This document shows, in pieces, positions 2,798-41,750 of a stretch of DNA of 64,000 bases (position 1 is the first letter of the stretch; the number at the start of each line of letters is the position of its first letter). Source of the stretch: Planctomycetota bacterium (GTDB lineage Bacteria > Planctomycetota > SZUA-567 > H5-PLA8). The DNA is taken from NCBI GenBank assembly GCA_038227875.1, contig JBBRPR010000017.1, positions 32,001-96,000 of the forward strand, given 5' to 3'. Made by a program: the position numbers and the translations under genes. The notes below the pieces were generated by a model, which had not been told where the DNA came from, did no database searches, and saw nothing but the letters and a program-made list of their open reading frames with translations.

Positions 2798-4165
2798 ATG
2801 CGCTTTCGCGGCGTGTTTTGGGTTGTAATCGGAGCATTGGCGCTGACCGGAAGGGTCAGCGCGGAAGAGCTTGGACCGCAGCTTCATGTATTGCAGACGC
2901 GGGTTGATGCACTTTTGAAAACGGTGGCCAGCCAGGCGAATAAAATTGACGAACAGCGCGCGCGCATCGATCAGCAGGACCAGGCGCTCCAGCGCATGGT
3001 CCAATCGGCGCCAATCGCTCCAGATGCGGTGCTGGCGCGGATTGAACGCGCGGACGCACAATCGGCGCAGGCAATCAAGATCGCCAGCCGCAAGAAGCCC
3101 AACGAACTGAACATGTCGATCGGCGCGGCCATCGACACGAGCTACAGCTTTTTCGACGGACCGAAGTCCGACGCCAACGGCCGCGCGGCGGGCAGCGACT
3201 TTGCCGTGCGCGGAGCGGAGTTGGTTTTCTATACCGATGTCGATCCGTATTTCAAAACGTACATGGTTCTGAACGCCACGCCGGACCCGAAGAATAACGA
3301 CGAGGCCGTGCCGTCGCTGGAAGAGGCGGCGATCATGACGACGTCGCTTTCGTACGCGCAGGTCAAGGGCGGGCGCTTTTTTCTGCCGTTCGGGCGCCTG
3401 TCGATGATCCACGATCACGATCTGCCATTCACCACGCGTCCGCCGTCGCTCGACCATTATGTCGGCGGCGAGAGCTCCGGGGATGGCGTCCAGGTTCAGG
3501 CGCTGCTGCCGATCAGTCATTTCCTGCAGATCACCGGCGGCGCGTTTAACAAAGTCGGCGCGGAAACGCCGCTCACGAACACCGTCGGCAACCGCCGCGA
3601 TGGCAATGAGCTTTCGTATTTCGCCAAGGCGCTAACAAGCTTCGATATTGGCACCGACCATACGATCGAGTGGGGTGTTTCGAGCGTTCAAAATCCGGCG
3701 ACGGAAACGCGGCGCGATCTGCTCGACATGGAGCTCACTTACAAGTGGCATCCATCCGGTTCGCCACTGCGCGAGCGGCTGGTGTGGGGCACGGAAATTC
3801 TCCGCGAAGACTTGCGCACTCAATTTCATGCGGCACCCGCTGGGGATCCTCTGGACGACTCGATTGCACAGGGCGCTGCACGCCGTGGCTACGGCGGGTA
3901 CACGTACGCCGAATATTTTCTGAATCGCAACTGGTCGCTCGGCCCGCGCGTCGACCTGTTCGAAAACGTCGATCCACAAATCGTCAGCAAGCGCACGTAC
4001 GACCAGACCTACACGGCGTTTCTCTCCTACAAATTCAGCGAGTTCAGCCGGCTCCGGTTTGAGTACGACCGGCAGTATCTTTTCGACGGGCGCTCCGCAA
4101 ATCAATTCTACCTGCAGTGGACCGTATTCTGGGGAGCCCACACCCACAGTTTTGAGCAGCGCTGA
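2798..4165 (+). CDS. Outer-membrane beta-barrel protein associated with metal uptake
   Basis: Signal peptide, short coiled coil, alternating aromatic beta-strands, IHDHDLPF and C-terminal FSEFSRLRFEY...WGAHTHSF; precedes a metal-binding protein gene. Confidence 0.75.
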   Translation: MRFRGVFWVVIGALALTGRVSAEELGPQLHVLQTRVDALLKTVASQANKIDEQRARIDQQDQALQRMVQSAPIAPDAVLARIERADAQSAQAIKIASRKKPNELNMSIGAAIDTSYSFFDGPKSDANGRAAGSDFAVRGAELVFYTDVDPYFKTYMVLNATPDPKNNDEAVPSLEEAAIMTTSLSYAQVKGGRFFLPFGRLSMIHDHDLPFTTRPPSLDHYVGGESSGDGVQVQALLPISHFLQITGGAFNKVGAETPLTNTVGNRRDGNELSYFAKALTSFDIGTDHTIEWGVSSVQNPATETRRDLLDMELTYKWHPSGSPLRERLVWGTEILREDLRTQFHAAPAGDPLDDSIAQGAARRGYGGYTYAEYFLNRNWSLGPRVDLFENVDPQIVSKRTYDQTYTAFLSYKFSEFSRLRFEYDRQYLFDGRSANQFYLQWTVFWGAHTHSFEQR

Positions 4166-14401: not shown

Positions 14402-15721
14402 TTACCAGATGATCGGAATGGCGCCACCGTCGTCGACGGAGTAATTCCAGCGTTTCAAATACGTTTCCGCTGGCTGGAAGTCATCGTTGAAGCGCGCCAA
14501 TTCCTGCTTCAATCGCGCGTCCAATTGAGCTTGAAGCGCGGCGCAATCCGGGCGGCCGATGAGATTCGTGAGTTGGTACGGATCGCGTTCGTTGTCGTAG
14601 AGCAGCCAGGGACCGTCCAAATTTCGTGCGTACGTATGCCGGTGCGTGCGCAGTGTCCGCCACGGCAAGCCACGGTACTCGGCAAACGGAGCGATTGCTG
14701 CGGCGAGCGTGGCGTCAGGACCCACAAAGTCGCGGTTCAACACCGCGGCGGAAAGATCCAGACCGTCCACCGTCGACGGCACGGGTACGCCCAGCAGAGA
14801 CAGCAGCGTGGGCATCAGGTCCCAGACATTCAAGAGCGTGTTGACTCGGCTTCCCTTGGTGAATTGCTTCGGTGCACGGATCACAAATGGAACGTTGATG
14901 CTCTCTTCCCACGGATGTTGTTTGCGTTGAACGCCGTGACTGCGCAGCATGTCGCCGTGATCGCTGGTAAAAACAAAAATTGTCTTCTCCAGCTGACCGT
15001 TCTCAGTCAGTCCGCGCACCAGGCGGCCAATCTGTTCGTCCAGCGCTGTGACATGAGCGTAGTAGCCGCGCAACTCGTCCCGGTTGGGATTCGGGCAATT
15101 GGGTCGCACCGGCACGTCGGGCGGGTACAGGTCGAGAAATTCCTTGGGCACCTGATCGTAGGGATTGTGTGGCGGACCCCAGGACAGAAACAGCGCAAAA
15201 GGATCCGCGCCGCTTCGCTTTAAAAAGTCCAGAGCAACATCGGTCTGCGCGCGCGCGTCGTAGCCGTTCCAATGTTTCTTTTCAGTGGAGTCGCCGGAAT
15301 AGTAATGCGACTGCATGTAATTGTGATCGCAGTTGGCGACGGCCCAGAAATCGAATCCCTGGCGCCGCGGTCCGGGCGGCGTATAGGCCGAACGTTCATT
15401 GCCATCCAAATGCCATTTGCCAATGTAGCCGGTGCGGTATCCCGCTTCTTTCAATACGGTGCCGAATGTGGGGCGATCTGTTGGCAGGCGCAAATCGTTG
15501 ATGAACAACCCGTGCCGCAGCGGGTATTGGCCAGTCAGCATGCTCGCACGCCAGGGCGTGCAGACCGGCATGCCCGAAATGCAGTTCACGAATTCCAGTC
15601 CTTCGGCCGCGAGCTTGTCCAAGTTCGGTGAAATCACCGCGCGATTGCCGGAGTATCCCGTGGCTTCCGCGCGCATTTGATCGGCAAAAACAAAGACCAG
15701 ATTGTATTCGGGTCGACTCAT
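14402..15721 (-). CDS. Formylglycine-dependent sulfatase
   Basis: FADQMR, CTPWRASMLTG (CxPxR), GYIGKWHL, PPHNP, FTSDHGD. Confidence 0.95.
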   Translation of the reverse strand: MSRPEYNLVFVFADQMRAEATGYSGNRAVISPNLDKLAAEGLEFVNCISGMPVCTPWRASMLTGQYPLRHGLFINDLRLPTDRPTFGTVLKEAGYRTGYIGKWHLDGNERSAYTPPGPRRQGFDFWAVANCDHNYMQSHYYSGDSTEKKHWNGYDARAQTDVALDFLKRSGADPFALFLSWGPPHNPYDQVPKEFLDLYPPDVPVRPNCPNPNRDELRGYYAHVTALDEQIGRLVRGLTENGQLEKTIFVFTSDHGDMLRSHGVQRKQHPWEESINVPFVIRAPKQFTKGSRVNTLLNVWDLMPTLLSLLGVPVPSTVDGLDLSAAVLNRDFVGPDATLAAAIAPFAEYRGLPWRTLRTHRHTYARNLDGPWLLYDNERDPYQLTNLIGRPDCAALQAQLDARLKQELARFNDDFQPAETYLKRWNYSVDDGGAIPIIW

Positions 15722-15823
15722 CGTGGGCACCTTTCAACAGTAAACGGCAGTCACGCTCTAATCACTCCACGCGTTGCGCGCAAGTCGCAGTTCCGCGTTC
15801 TTAAAGAACGTTTCACGGAAAAT

Positions 15824-15852
15824 TTGACAGTTTGCTGTTCGTGAGGTTGAAT
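15824..15852 (+). promoter_or_regulatory. Sigma70-type promoter of the tyrS leader
   Basis: TTGACA (15824-15829), 17-nt spacer, TTGAAT (15847-15852). Confidence 0.6.
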
Positions 15853-15876
15853 GCCCTGGTCCGAATGGAGATCAAC

Positions 15877-15930
15877 ATGCTACGCGCGTTTTACGGCTAC
15901 GGATATCGATTCAACTCCCCCGTGGCGTAG
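15877..15930 (+). CDS. Putative Tyr-rich leader peptide MLRAFYGYGYRFNSPVA
   Basis: GGAG at 15867-15870; ATG...TTT TAC GGC TAC GGA TAT CGA TTC...TAG; lies upstream of tyrS and of attenuator helices. Confidence 0.75.
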   Translation: MLRAFYGYGYRFNSPVA

Positions 15931-15953
15931 CGCGACTGTTTTGAATTTAGGCG

Positions 15954-16039
15954 AGCCATGGGTATGATCATCCCATGGCTTTTTTGTTGGCGTAAATAAA
16001 GGGGCCATGGGATGCGCGGAAGCGTCTCATGGCCTTTTT
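15954..16039 (+). terminator. Tandem intrinsic terminators / attenuator upstream of tyrS
   Basis: AGCCATGGG/CCCATGGCT plus T-run (15954-15985) and GGCCATGGGATGC/GCGTCTCATGGCC plus T-run (16003-16039); 15970-15979 is also complementary to 16004-16013. Confidence 0.8.
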
Positions 16040-16057
16040 AATTGAACGGAGGATGCA

Positions 16058-17365
16058 ATGCTGGGCGATGTCGTTCAGGAATTACGGTGGCGCGGGTTGT
16101 TGCAGCAGATGACCGACGAGACGCTCGAGAAGCGTCTGCTCCAGAATCCATTTACGCTCTACGCCGGTTTCGACCCGACGGCCGACAGCCTCGCGGCGCA
16201 TCACATGATTCCGCTGCTCAATCTCGCCCGCTTCCAGCGCGCCGGGCACAAGCCCATCGCGGTGGTCGGCGGCGGCACGGGGTTCATCGGCGATCCGTCG
16301 GGCAAAACTGAAGAGCGCCAGTTGCTCACCGCGGAGCAGCTTGAGGCCAACGTCGCCGGTCAGCGCAAGCAGATGGAGCGCTTCCTGGATTTCACGCCCG
16401 GTACGGCGCAGGCCTCCGTGCTGAACAACGCCGATTGGCTCTGCGGCATGAACCTGATCACGTACCTGCGCGACGTCGGCAAGCATTTCACGGTCAACTC
16501 GATGCTGGAGAAAGATTCCGTCCGCCGGCGCCTGGAAGATCGCGCACAGGGCATCAGCTACACGGAATTCAGCTACATGCTGCTGCAGGCGTACGATTTT
16601 TATCACCTCTTCAAGCACCACGGGTGCCGGCTGCAGATTGGCGGCAGCGATCAATTCGGCAACATCACCGCCGGCTGCGAATTGATCCGCCGCCGTCGTC
16701 CCGAAACCGAGGCGCATGAGACGTGGGGCGCATACGGTTTGACCACGACCCTGATTACCGATTCCAACGGCGAGAAAATCGGCAAGACCACGAAAGGCGC
16801 GCTGTGGCTGGATCCGAACAAGACGACGCCGTTCGATTTCTACCAGTACTGGATCAACACCAGCGACGCCGACGCCATCAAGTACGTCCGTTACTTCACC
16901 GACGTGAACGAAGCCGACGCGCAAGCCGGCGAGGCCGATCACGCCAAGGACCCGGGCAAGCGTTTGCTGCAGAAGAAGCTCGCCCGCTTCATGACGGAGC
17001 TGGTTCACGGCGTGACGGAACGGGAGAACGCACAGAAGATGACCGACGATCTTTTTACCAAGTCGGTAAAAGACCTCGACGAAGCTGCGCTCTTGAACCT
17101 TGTGAAAGATGCTTCGAGTTCGACACTCTCGCGATCGCGGTTGGAAGGCGAAGGGATGCCAATTATCGAGTTGCTTGCAGAAGCTACCAAACTGTGGGCA
17201 TCAAAGGGCGAGGCGAAGAAGTCGATTCAAGGCAACGGAGCGAATCTCAACGACGTTCGAGTGACTGATCTTCAGAAAAAAGTGACGACGGCTGAGCTGC
17301 TCCATGGCAAGTACTTGGTGCTGCGGAAGGGGAAGAAAGACAATCATCTGGTGAAGGTGGAATGA
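16058..17365 (+). CDS. tyrS: Tyrosine--tRNA ligase
   Basis: LYAGFDPTADSL, GDPSGK, EFSYMLLQAYDF, QIGGSDQFGNI, KIGKT, C-terminal S4-like domain (LRKGKK); GGAGG RBS. Confidence 0.97.
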   Translation: MLGDVVQELRWRGLLQQMTDETLEKRLLQNPFTLYAGFDPTADSLAAHHMIPLLNLARFQRAGHKPIAVVGGGTGFIGDPSGKTEERQLLTAEQLEANVAGQRKQMERFLDFTPGTAQASVLNNADWLCGMNLITYLRDVGKHFTVNSMLEKDSVRRRLEDRAQGISYTEFSYMLLQAYDFYHLFKHHGCRLQIGGSDQFGNITAGCELIRRRRPETEAHETWGAYGLTTTLITDSNGEKIGKTTKGALWLDPNKTTPFDFYQYWINTSDADAIKYVRYFTDVNEADAQAGEADHAKDPGKRLLQKKLARFMTELVHGVTERENAQKMTDDLFTKSVKDLDEAALLNLVKDASSSTLSRSRLEGEGMPIIELLAEATKLWASKGEAKKSIQGNGANLNDVRVTDLQKKVTTAELLHGKYLVLRKGKKDNHLVKVE

Positions 17366-17518: not shown

Positions 17519-18781
17519 ATGTCGCTCAACGAATGGCTGGAGTCGGCTCGCGGCGGAAATCTCGACGCCTTTGAACGGCTCATGGATGCGACGCAAGGCA
17601 TGGTCTATGCCGTCGTGCGCCGCATTCTGATCGACCGTGAAGACGCGGCGGATGCCGTTCAGGAGACCTACGTCCGGGCGTTTGGAAAGCTGTCGGAGAT
17701 TCGGAATCCAGACTCCTTTCCGGGATGGCTCAGGCGTATCGCGGTGACGACTGCGATGGGTCTCCAGCGTTCTCGCCGTAACCACTTTGTTGAGTTCGAC
17801 GACGATCTGCACATTCCCATTCTGGACGATCAGGAAACACGCTGGAGCGAATTTCAGCACGCGGCGATGGCAGAAGCCATCGTCAAGCTCGGCGAGAGCG
17901 ACCGGCTGCTGTGTGAACGCTTTTATCACGGCGGCTGGCCCCTGGCGCGACTGGCGGAAGATCTGGAAATTTCGGAAAGCGCCGTGCGCAAACGCCTCCA
18001 GCGCATCCGCGAACACTTGCGAAAGGATATTGAAATGAACGAACAACGAACACTGGCCGGCGAACACCTGCCAGGAAATCTGCCGCGGAAAGTGATTGAG
18101 CTGCTGGCCCGTCCCCGGCTCACCACCATTCCGGAAAATCCGGTGGGCCGCATCTGGCATCTAATCCAATCGCACCTGCCCAAGTCCGTGGACATGGACG
18201 TTTCGGAAACGGTGACCGACGAGCAAGTGCGGGAGATGCTCGGCGACTTATATGACGCCGGTTCTGACATCGGAGGGGGGCAGGGCATTCATCGCGTCGA
18301 CGACGCGCAACACCTCCGCGCCGAAATCACGCTGCCGTTGCTGCTGGCGTGCCGCGGGCGCAGCGGGCCTCAGTCGATCGTGAGCGCTGGGAAAGTCTAC
18401 CGGATTGCGAAAGTCGGACCCGCTCACATGGAATCCTTTCATCAAGGCGAATGGCTGAACGTTAGCGAGTCGGCCTCGCTCTGGGACTCGATGGGCCTGA
18501 TCAGCGGAATGATCAAGGGGCTCTATCCCGACAAGGCGATCCGCTGGGAGAAAGTTCAGCTTCCTCTGTGCGAGGAAGCGTGGGAACTCTTTGTGGACTG
18601 GAACGGCAAGTACGTCGCGGTGCTGGGGTGCGGCCGCTACAAGGATCGGATCGTGGAGTACCTCGGCAACGATCCCCGTCGATTTACCGCTATCGGCGCG
18701 GGCTTCGGTTTGGAGCGCATGGCCTGCGCTCACTTCGGGATCGATGACATTCGCAAGGTGGAGGGAATCCGGCTGAGTTGA
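17519..18781 (+). CDS. ECF sigma-70 factor fused to a PheRS-alpha-like class II aaRS domain
   Basis: N-terminus: AADAVQETYVRAF...FPGWLRRI and LAEDLEISESAVRKRLQR; C-terminus: AGKVYR...HMESFHQGE (motif 2), VLGCG, GFGLERMA...FGIDDIR (motif 3); GGAGG RBS. Confidence 0.85.
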   Translation: MSLNEWLESARGGNLDAFERLMDATQGMVYAVVRRILIDREDAADAVQETYVRAFGKLSEIRNPDSFPGWLRRIAVTTAMGLQRSRRNHFVEFDDDLHIPILDDQETRWSEFQHAAMAEAIVKLGESDRLLCERFYHGGWPLARLAEDLEISESAVRKRLQRIREHLRKDIEMNEQRTLAGEHLPGNLPRKVIELLARPRLTTIPENPVGRIWHLIQSHLPKSVDMDVSETVTDEQVREMLGDLYDAGSDIGGGQGIHRVDDAQHLRAEITLPLLLACRGRSGPQSIVSAGKVYRIAKVGPAHMESFHQGEWLNVSESASLWDSMGLISGMIKGLYPDKAIRWEKVQLPLCEEAWELFVDWNGKYVAVLGCGRYKDRIVEYLGNDPRRFTAIGAGFGLERMACAHFGIDDIRKVEGIRLS

Positions 18782-40733: not shown

Positions 40734-41750
40734 ATGCCCATGGCAGAAGACGCGCAAGTCGTGCCCGCAATCTTCGAAGCCAACGATCGCGTCTACAAGG
40801 CCGACACCTGCGATCCGGTGAAAGTCGCCGTCGAACGCGGGCAGATGCGCAACGTCGCGCTGGTTCATGGCGCGTATCCGGGCCTGCAACTTCCTGCCAA
40901 GTGTCTTCCGGAGCTCTGCTGCGTCGGCTATTGGGACATCACCAAGGATCAGTCGTGGGGTCTGGGCGATCATCGCAACGAAGGGCTTGAGCTCTCGTAT
41001 ATCTCCAGAGGCAAATTGGCGGCGGGAATCGCGGGGCAGGAGACGGAACTGCGCTCCGGATCGCTGGCGGTGATCCGGCCGTGGCAGGTTCACAATTGGG
41101 GCAAGCCGAACATTACGGCCTGCCGGCAGGTGTATTTCATTCTCGATGTCGGCGTGCGCCGTCCCGATCAGGAATGGAACTGGCCGGATTGGCTGGTGCT
41201 CTCACCCGAGGACGTTCGCCGCCTGACGCAACTCCTGCGGCACAACGAACAGTCCACGTGGAAAGCCCTGGCGCTGGGCGATGCGTTTGAGAAGCTGCGC
41301 AAAACCGTCGACGCTTGGAGCTCCGCACCGAACGAATCGCGGCTGCGGCTGTGCATCAACGAACTGCTGATCTCGTTTCTGGAGATGCTGGAAGCGCACA
41401 ACATTCCGCTGGATGAGTCGCTCTCCAGCGCGCAGCGAACCGTGGAAATGTTCCTCGCCGCGCTGCCGCAGCATGTCGCGCATCCCTGGGATCTGGATCT
41501 GATGGCCGAGCAGTGCGGTTTGGCGCGGAGTCGGTTCGCGCATTACTGCAAGCTCTCGGTCAATCTGACGCCGATGGAATTCCTGGTGCGCTGCCGCGTC
41601 AACGCGGCTCAGAAAATGCTCCGCGAACAGCCCGAACGCAGCGTCATCGACATCGCTGCCGCGTGCGGCTTTCAATCGGCGCAGTATTTCTCGACGGTCT
41701 TCAAAGCGCGCACGGGACGTTCGCCGCGCGACTTTGCCAGCACGAAATAG
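40734..41750 (+). CDS. AraC-family transcriptional regulator
   Basis: WGLGDHRNEGLE cupin; MAEQCGLARSRF; CGFQSAQYFSTVFK; GGAGG RBS. Confidence 0.92.
   Translation: MPMAEDAQVVPAIFEANDRVYKADTCDPVKVAVERGQMRNVALVHGAYPGLQLPAKCLPELCCVGYWDITKDQSWGLGDHRNEGLELSYISRGKLAAGIAGQETELRSGSLAVIRPWQVHNWGKPNITACRQVYFILDVGVRRPDQEWNWPDWLVLSPEDVRRLTQLLRHNEQSTWKALALGDAFEKLRKTVDAWSSAPNESRLRLCINELLISFLEMLEAHNIPLDESLSSAQRTVEMFLAALPQHVAHPWDLDLMAEQCGLARSRFAHYCKLSVNLTPMEFLVRCRVNAAQKMLREQPERSVIDIAAACGFQSAQYFSTVFKARTGRSPRDFASTK

Follow-up and report, generated by a model that had tools for sequence, protein, structure and literature searches.

The tyrS gene of a planctomycete, which encodes tyrosine--tRNA ligase, is preceded by a leader that reads as a tyrosine-sensing, ribosome-mediated transcription attenuator, an interpretation of the sequence to which a probability of about 0.75 can be given. 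The gene lies within a 64,000-nucleotide stretch of DNA, referred to here as the window, that comes from a Planctomycetota bacterium (contig JBBRPR010000017.1, positions 32,001 to 96,000) with a 9.3 Mb assembly, the genome under study, designated G000. An attenuator of this kind would probably raise the output of the synthetase when Tyr-charged tRNA is in short supply. The features by which the class is recognised can all be read in the sequence, namely a Shine-Dalgarno (SD) motif with a short open reading frame (ORF), a cluster of codons for the cognate amino acid, a terminator, an antiterminator that excludes it and the same arrangement ahead of orthologous genes. The leader carries two candidate terminators, and the exact scheme by which both are proposed to be switched in a relay, which depends upon modelled folding, stands at roughly even odds.

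What are the elements of this leader, and how are they arranged? The original prediction had named a promoter, a GGAG motif, a 17-codon ORF, its Tyr codons and five pairing segments (S1, A, B, C and D), and a base-by-base reading of positions 15600-16400 located every one of them, all on the forward strand (+), as are tyrS and the other leader features given below. The candidate promoter (15824-15852) consists of TTGACA (15824-15829), a 17-nucleotide (nt) spacer and a weak -10 hexamer, TTGAAT (15847-15852). An SD-like GGAG (15867-15870) lies 6 nt ahead of the ATG at 15877, from which the leader ORF (15877-15930) runs for 17 codons to a TAG stop (15928-15930) and would specify the peptide MLRAFYGYGYRFNSPVA; a second in-frame ATG, at 15865, is without an SD motif. 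The putative sensor is the run of codons TAC-GGC-TAC-GGA-TAT (15892-15906), with Tyr codons at 15892 (TAC), 15898 (TAC) and 15904 (TAT) and with Phe codons (F5 and F12) flanking them. For annotators, the 17-codon ORF would be a sensor and not a protein gene. The gene downstream had been taken for tyrS, an identification that is secure: it starts with the ATG at 16058 (16058-17365) behind the SD sequence GGAGGA (16048-16053, read from the sequence), encodes 435 amino acids, matches TIGR00234 (E = 5.3e-106) together with PF00579 and PF22421, and is the sole TyrRS match in the 9.3 Mb assembly.

Between the end of the ORF and the gene lie the segments on which the proposed switch would turn. The 5' strand of the antiterminator, S1 (CCCGTGGC, 15919-15926), ends 1 nt short of the stop codon and is complementary to arm A over 8 base pairs (bp), one of which is a G-U pair. 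Arm A (GCCATGGG, 15955-15962) is also the 5' arm of the first candidate terminator, T1 (15953-15985), in which a 9-nt loop, arm B (CCCATGGC, 15972-15979) and a T6 run (15980-15985) come next. In its longer form segment B (CATCCCATGGC, 15969-15979, with the T6 run of 15980-15985 directly after it) can pair with GCCATGGGATG to give a second antiterminator helix, B:C (15969-16014), which weak U:A/G pairs lengthen to around 20 bp. Segment C (GGCCATGGGATG, 16003-16014) is in turn the 5' arm of the second candidate terminator, T2 (15998-16039), which is completed by segment D (CGTCTCATGGCC, 16023-16034) and a T5 run directly after it (16035-16039). The pairings A:B and C:D had been described as terminator-like, and the computed folds agree, with T1 at -17.3 kcal/mol and T2 at -29.1 kcal/mol, each with its T-run.

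A further pairing, not listed in the original prediction, brings the Tyr-codon stretch itself into the structure, where it pairs with S1 and the stop region. In this helix, P1 (15885-15934), positions 15885-15902, with two Tyr codons among them, pair with 15920-15934, which take in S1 and the stop codon. At -19.1 kcal/mol P1 is present in both the minimum free energy (MFE) and the centroid structures of the whole leader, and it forms in the ribosome-free truncated fold (truncated folds here are folds of the transcript as far as it extends prior to synthesis of arm B, under a ribosome mask where one is applied). With P1 added the scheme becomes one of six segments and resembles that of the his leader; in the trp and his leaders the pairing of segments 1 and 2 locks away the antiterminator strand. 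P1 is followed by ACUGUUUUGAAUUU, and together they form a hairpin with a U-rich stretch (15885-15948, +), which may be a pause site that synchronises polymerase and ribosome.

The position of these hairpins has a direct bearing on how tyrS can be transcribed. Only 18 nt separate the T-run of T2 from the tyrS ATG and a simple consensus scan gave no promoter-like site 3' of T1; transcription of tyrS must therefore cross both hairpins. Nor do T1 and T2 terminate an upstream gene, since the sulfatase-like neighbour on that side is divergent, lying on the opposite strand. No ORF of at least 60 amino acids overlaps 15738-16041 on either strand.

In the proposed mechanism transcription would start about 25 nt ahead of the leader ORF, and a ribosome would load while the polymerase moves on. 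With Tyr-tRNA plentiful, this ribosome would reach the stop codon at 15928 and cover S1 (15919-15926), leaving A free to pair with B once B is made, and T1 would then form such that most transcripts would end at 15980-15985. For those polymerases that escape T1, B would be locked within T1, C would pair with D, and T2 would catch them as a backstop. With Tyr-tRNA scarce, the ribosome would stall at 15892-15906, melting P1 and exposing S1, and the exposed S1 would capture A before B exists; the free B would then capture C before D exists, neither terminator would form and the polymerase would read into tyrS. On a transcript with no ribosome, P1 would hold S1 and T1 would form.

Can the helices exchange partners in this manner? 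On paper the relay works, because the pairings seen in truncated folds are those that the scheme calls for, the competing structures are near-equal in energy and B:C is favoured over T2 when S1:A is held. The S1:A helix is computed at about -16.5 to -17.4 kcal/mol and B:C at -29.6 kcal/mol. When the ribosome mask is set on a Tyr codon in the truncated folds, the partner of A is the 3'-terminal part of the leader ORF, both in G000 and in two related leaders, those of the loci L124 and G014. This pairing is S1:A over 8 bp in G000, extends over 15 bp in L124, and in G014 covers 8 bp, one mismatch included; when the mask is moved to the stop codon the pairing disappears, which leaves A available to B. 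For the RNA beyond a ribosome stalled on the last Tyr codon, the readthrough fold of G000 (S1:A with B:C) comes to -51.2 kcal/mol and the terminated fold (T1 with T2) to -53.3 kcal/mol, which is near-equal, and the barrier between them is 15.5 kcal/mol. If S1:A is held, then B:C beats T2 (-51.2 versus -46.3 kcal/mol). For L124, the antiterminator is the MFE structure of the RNA present at the point of terminator completion (-28.9 kcal/mol). The 203-nt leader as a whole folds to -78.1 kcal/mol, as compared with -61.3 +/- 4.4 kcal/mol in shuffled sequences (z = -3.86), and none of 200 shuffles does as well.

The Tyr cluster is itself a rare feature. Among 10,637 small ORFs counted across both strands of the whole 9.3 Mb genome (8-36 codons, an ATG start and an SD-like motif), just six have at least three Tyr within five residues; the leader ORF is one of these, and it is the only one of the six with terminators after it. 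This rarity bears upon the suggestion that the leader ORF senses translation in general, whether as ribosome availability or as speed, with no special weight on the Tyr codons. The structural logic would indeed work with any slow codons, the Tyr codons of the leader have Phe codons (F5 and F12) on either side, and the Corynebacterium glutamicum aroR leader, with Phe-Tyr-Phe, is reportedly unaffected by Tyr availability, according to the passage on it in PMC11802643. However, Tyr is the one residue enriched in all four of the Tyr-rich leaders found in the family, it is the amino acid that the regulated synthetase attaches to tRNA, and clusters of it are very rare (6/10,637), such that sensing of translation in general is very unlikely.

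The leader is also found beyond this genome. For the comparison, tyrS loci were drawn from 60 related genomes, GTDB genome contigs and metagenome contigs, and the family set comprises 24 loci with at least 140 nt of upstream sequence after de-duplication, G010 having been added and L122 and L123 being near-identical; G014 corresponds to locus L033, G004 to L015, G012 to L013 and G006 to L014, with L124 a metagenome contig. A Tyr-rich short ORF is combined with the GCCATGGG/CCCATGGC hairpin and a T-run in three of the 24 loci, those of G000, L124 and G014 (L033). Two others (G006 and G012) have the hairpin alone, 70 nt behind a dGTPase-like gene, one (G004/L015) has a Tyr-rich ORF, MAPFVYAYYRYSC, and a similar promoter without this hairpin, and the remaining 18, which include the nearest relatives at 72-74% TyrRS identity, have neither element. 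A search with the leader DNA against 17 family genomes returned the self-match as the only significant one, together with an 18-nt exact match before tyrS of G014, and it was through this match that the shared hairpin was recognised.

Within the three complete leaders the geometry is held while the peptide is not. The distance from the -35 box, TTGAC(A/G), to the leader ATG is 53 nt in G000, 53 nt in L124 and 55 nt in G014/L033 (60 nt in G004/L015), and that from the leader stop to arm A is 24, 28 and 25 nt in the same order for the first three. The peptides themselves are MLRAFYGYGYRFNSPVA in G000, MRRYCYYYAINIKELSQA in L124 (where TyrRS is 71% identical) and MGNRGYILYYPLSHRGPRPRAR in G014/L033, and across G000, L124, L033 and L015 only the Tyr cluster is common to them, the rest being unalignable. 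The related leaders (L124, L033 and L015) have 3-4 Tyr codons each and SD-like motifs also ahead of their ORFs. Such divergence outside the Tyr cluster would be expected of a leader whose function resides in its codons and not in the peptide they encode. In the TyrRS tree G014 belongs to one deep clade of the family and G000 and L124 to the other, for which the simplest history would be an ancestral leader that was repeatedly lost as the upstream neighbourhood rearranged.

Where the leaders differ in layout is between the leader stop and the tyrS ATG, a distance of 127 nt in G000 and 78 nt in both L124 and G014. The additional stretch of around 49 nt in G000, absent from L124 and G014, contains T2. 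The tail TTTTTTG is common to all three, and in L124 and G014 tyrS starts 27-32 nt later. The second stage of the G000 leader appears to have arisen by an insertion of about 49 nt, probably through duplication of the hairpin, and the putative two-terminator relay would be an elaboration of the single-terminator form, which is the older of the two in the family. The G004/L015 leader (1279-1492), with MAPFVYAYYRYSC, four Tyr and a TTGACG promoter before tyrS, stands apart from these three: a canonical terminator was not identified in it and the CCATGG hairpin is absent, and in its MFE structure a long-range helix from the SD region to the stretch just before UUUCCUUUU closes the whole leader, with a U-rich stretch after it.

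Two further lines of evidence concern whether the sequence is real and whether hairpins of this sort may serve as terminators in the organism. Contigs from two public sequencing runs of different studies, X4 and X5, match parts of the leader with 0 differences (15720-15870 and 15875-16025 in X4, 15700-15952 in X5), and because these independent contigs are identical to it the leader sequence is not an assembly artefact. The four DNA runs compared, all of them as contigs, gave no variants and no ends, and no RNA run was listed for 15700-16700. Across G000, hairpins at least as strong as -12 kcal/mol stand ahead of 1392 of 15,494 T5 runs as against 875 of 15,494 A5 runs, an excess that fits the use of intrinsic terminators by this organism. 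G000 has a single copy of the GCCATGGG...CCCATGGC hairpin, which is thus not a dispersed repeat.

A number of observations nevertheless weigh against the attenuator and need to be considered together, beginning with the folding. Equilibrium folding of the whole leader gives both terminators with a probability of 1.00 under every ribosome mask. Since equilibrium always favours the terminators, the model depends upon co-transcriptional kinetics, which are approximated here by folds of truncated transcripts and by path barriers. For G000 and L033 stability favours the terminator over the antiterminator (-21.6 versus -17.4 kcal/mol in G000), with estimated barriers between the terminator and the antiterminated state of 9.9 kcal/mol in G000 and 15.4 kcal/mol in L033. 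Each antiterminator duplex was compared with 2000 dinucleotide shuffles: S1:A in G000 is marginal, with 103 of the 2000 as good, and the L033 duplex is no better than chance (508/2000), whereas that of L124 is matched by only 2/2000. Masking S1 does switch the truncated RNA, in line with the original prediction, while the whole-leader equilibrium stays with both terminators, and the alternative of S1:A plus B:C is borne out by the truncated folds and by the preference for B:C over T2 with S1:A held, while S1:A on its own is marginal against shuffles.

The distribution of the leader is a second point of this kind, with leader and hairpin together in only 3/24 family loci, a patchy occurrence beside the 18 loci that have neither. 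A third is the stem itself. The 8-bp stem of T1, with its T-run, also stands before tyrS in L124, G014, G006 and G012, and it is identical in all five loci, even though their TyrRS are only about 57% identical and the loops and the remainder of the leader are unalignable. The stem is thus invariant and not covarying, which plain attenuation does not explain. Variation in T1 is too small for a covariation test, and one compensatory change, from A-U to C-G, represents a single event with a score that 56 of 500 shuffles reach. The expectation that relatives would share Tyr-rich upstream ORFs and covarying helices is accordingly realised for the ORF with its hairpin, in three lineages, and not for convincing covariation. 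Moreover, G006 and G012 keep the hairpin behind the dGTPase-like gene with no Tyr ORF, and hence the hairpin can persist without the sensor. In these two loci (L014 and L013) the GCCATGGG/CCCATGGC hairpin and its T-run lie at 2847-2867 (-), 30 nt ahead of tyrS, and with a hairpin and T-run directly before the gene tyrS must there be read through a terminator.

Why should a terminator stem be kept to the letter? Its invariance across the deepest split of the family, together with its retention by G006 and G012 in loci that lack a Tyr ORF, may point to a second, sequence-specific reader of the hairpin. E. coli ThrRS, for instance, regulates itself through its leader (the thrS type). Taken to its limit, this becomes an alternative in which a protein, either TyrRS in an autoregulatory role or some other RNA-binding regulator of termination or translation, recognises the GCCAUGGG/CCCAUGGC stem-loop by its sequence, with the Tyr ORF reduced to a secondary or second input. 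Identity of the 8-bp stem among otherwise unalignable leaders is what such a protein would impose, the hairpin of G006 and G012 sits directly before tyrS with no ORF to read, and among genes that encode RNA-binding proteins attenuation is frequent and self-regulation occasional, as is noted in the relevant part of Naville and Gautheret (PMC2965389). Yet a protein-read hairpin leaves unexplained why leader peptides with nothing else in common should each carry 3-4 Tyr codons, set at a constant distance from the hairpin, the loops vary in sequence and in length (5, 5, 5, 7 and 9 nt across the five loci), neither of the two tRNA-Tyr(GTA) genes of G000 contains CCATGG (by substring matching and not by structure), and the hairpin is present in one copy per genome in G000, G006, G012 and G014, hence there is no regulon. 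As a replacement for tyrosine sensing, this is unlikely. A joint reading, in which a relay through a chain of three mutually exclusive helices (S1:A, then B:C) switches two complete terminators in series and so multiplies the dynamic range, and a second sequence-specific reader (TyrRS or another protein) makes the leader a dual-input switch, is a tentative and rather unlikely proposition.

The conserved stem can also be viewed as DNA. A perfect palindrome, conserved in sequence and placed between promoter and gene, might be the site of a dimeric transcription factor, with GCCATGGG-N-CCCATGGC as the inverted repeat of an operator. This is scarcely credible, as the spacing of the half-sites varies (5-9 nt), a T-run always follows directly after the repeat, the -35 box is 130 nt away on the upstream side and the repeat is found nowhere else in the G000 genome.

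The promoter of the leader is a further weak point for the attenuator. The -10 hexamer, TTGAAT, is weak and has no canonical A at position 2, because of which TTGACA-17-TTGAAT was missed by the simple consensus scan. The only promoter-like site returned by the scan, TTGAAT-16-TATGAT (9/12; 15941-15968, +), sits inside T1. A separate small gene or small RNA with terminators of its own, or leaky insulator terminators, could be imagined here, in which case tyrS would be constitutive, transcribed either by readthrough or from some cryptic promoter, for which 15941-15968 is a candidate; that the scan's sole candidate lies within T1 and that tyrS in most relatives has no such leader would both be in keeping with this. 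The site, though, is at chance level (0.6 +/- 0.7 expected per shuffle) with its -10 in the T1 loop, and a transcript from it would begin in arm B and would then still meet an intact T2. Furthermore, the leader peptides are not conserved as peptides, and in L124 and L033 the T-run is followed after only 27-32 nt by the tyrS ATG, too short an interval to accommodate a promoter. A constitutive tyrS behind an unrelated transcription unit or an insulator is for these reasons highly improbable. A simple terminator scan likewise gave 0 terminator-like sites in the leader region and missed both T1 and T2, which is judged to reflect a limit of its loop and tail rules (the loop limit was 8 nt and the T1 loop is 9 nt); our own folds, used in its place, have a T-run directly after each hairpin.

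Finally, the tyrS leader has no counterpart elsewhere in G000 as far as the searches went. No cognate leader was found before the pheS, trpS, hisS, leuS or thrS genes, and a crude genome-wide screen for attenuators yielded 156 raw hits, of which the 10 inspected lie in genes or at gene ends and none is convincing. With these points taken into account, the Tyr-sensing attenuator that was originally proposed remains the reading best supported by the computations, through the identity of tyrS, the position of the gene behind both hairpins, the homologous leaders, the switch in the truncated folds and the energies of the relay.

How does this leader compare with attenuators that are already known? 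The his leader of Salmonella and E. coli is a multi-segment attenuator with one terminator and a run of seven His codons. The tyrS leader is like it in having more than four pairing segments, alternative chains of hairpins and sensor codons inside the first segment, and unlike it in that two complete terminators would be switched together and that the sensor consists of three alternating Tyr codons (Y-G-Y-G-Y). The logic is established for the E. coli pheM leader of pheST (Springer et al. 1985, as cited in PMC11802643), which, as that source describes it, shares with the present leader a short ORF rich in cognate codons, a Rho-independent terminator and a synthetase gene placed under the supply of charged tRNA, although membership of that class is here assigned from sequence and comparative evidence. 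The differences are in the amino acid and gene (Tyr and tyrS), in the phylum (Planctomycetota), in the two terminators in series that are linked by a shared middle helix, and in the lack of any sequence similarity. In C. glutamicum the aroR leader has Tyr within its sensor (Phe-Tyr-Phe) and is likewise a leader-peptide attenuator, but it controls the DAHP synthase gene aroF and is reported to respond to Phe and not to Tyr (Neshat et al. 2014, per the account in PMC11802643), whereas the leader considered here is dominated by Tyr codons and would act on tyrS.

The same gene is controlled in another fashion in Bacillus subtilis, where tyrS is under a T-box leader (PMC2879506). There too the signal is a shortage of charged tRNA-Tyr and the response is antitermination in the 5' leader, but a T-box binds uncharged tRNA directly without a leader peptide, and no T-box model matches here. 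A T-box riboswitch was rejected as a candidate when cmscan of 15000-17000, with E up to 10, returned nothing beyond two weak hits to microRNA-hairpin models, both explained by the long B:C hairpin, and Rfam gave no gathering-level hits, and no T-box, in L124, L033, L015 or L013. Leader-peptide attenuators of synthetase genes have been predicted computationally outside the Proteobacteria, for trpS and leuS in Streptomyces (PMC1262725) and, with His codons, for hisS paralogues in bacilli (PMC2965389), to judge from the sections of those papers concerned; the present case differs in the amino acid, Tyr, and in the phylum. In those sections, tyrosine is mentioned by PMC1262725 only as T-box-regulated in other species and no 'tyrS' was found in the text of PMC2965389, the authors of which stated in 2010 that they knew of no such leader demonstrated outside the Proteobacteria and Actinobacteria. 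The original prediction had known of no described Tyr leader peptide for tyrS, and in full-text searches, with subscription-only papers outside their reach, neither a Tyr-codon leader for tyrS nor a leader-peptide attenuator in Planctomycetota was found. As far as has been searched, then, the mechanism is that of the textbook and what is new is its Tyr specificity for tyrS and its occurrence in the phylum Planctomycetota.

The search for such leaders was extended beyond the family. The hairpin pattern occurs in 37 of 401 Planctomycetota genomes, versus 3 for a reversed control, and among the 30 of 40 pattern sites that were fetched only four family loci precede tyrS; the other sites were set aside, being mostly inside apparent coding sequence with a few ordinary terminators. 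None of 15 loci at order and class level (L016-L030) has a Tyr leader with a terminator. A wider screen for Tyr ORFs flagged 29 among the 185 of 200 loci that had usable upstream sequence, two of the 29 being the window itself, and the Tyr frames from outside the family were rejected as attenuators, as they lie in AT-rich promoter regions of Bacteroidota or start with TTG, and have no terminators. In marine Flavobacteriia (L065, L143, L149-L158 and others) a frame MYYFLNYFFL(LF) is conserved at -66 to -27 before tyrS; it ends about 30 nt (for example 33 nt) before the gene, within a divergent promoter region that is AT-rich and lacks a terminator, and is probably not a sensor, though its conservation is notable. 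Three loci of one genus, g18 (L019, L023 and L029), share an upstream element at about -180 to -40 before tyrS, one frame of which reads ...YLQY..VDIKGLICTI..., and which is probably a conserved non-coding element. The synthetase itself shows variation, in that TyrRS of G014 (G014:C1:2353439-2354908) and of G010 (G010:C128:4238-5746) each align as two segments separated by a gap that follows residue ~217, in open frames of 508 and 555 amino acids respectively as against 435 in G000, a pattern suggestive of an insertion midway along the protein.

Several other features of this genome were noted along the way. At G000:C23, around 41,370-41,440, the gap between an L20-like gene and pheS holds a GC-rich hairpin with a T7 run immediately before the pheS start; it sits where E. 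coli has pheM, and no Phe-rich leader ORF accompanies it. Near-identical AACTCCCCGC-loop-GCGGGGAGTT hairpins with T-runs are found near C3:147063, C40:62858, C82:6125 and C57:15100 of G000 and may be a dispersed repeat of the terminator type. About 150 nt downstream of tyrS, at 17519-18781 (+), a single ORF of 420 amino acids joins an extracytoplasmic function (ECF)-type sigma factor to a PheS-type core, with Sigma70_r2 and r4 at residues ~16-172 and the class II synthetase core PF01409 at residues 267-414 (E = 7e-21); it also matches the 'PheS-related mystery ligase SrmL' model. We know of no sigma factor with a synthetase-like C-terminal domain.

What would such an attenuator mean for the organism and its family? 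If the reading is right, tyrosine would join the amino acids that are sensed by leader-peptide attenuation of a synthetase gene, and control of tyrS would have been reached by a solution that is neither a T-box nor TyrR. The family would also offer a natural series, from one terminator (L124 and G014) through two that are interlocked (G000) to a hairpin without its sensor (G006 and G012) and complete loss, in which the gain and loss of an attenuator would become directly comparable. Planctomycete cells have long been debated as compartmentalised, and close coupling bears on that debate. The leader would, if it works as proposed, be indirect evidence that translation closely follows RNA polymerase in this planctomycete lineage.

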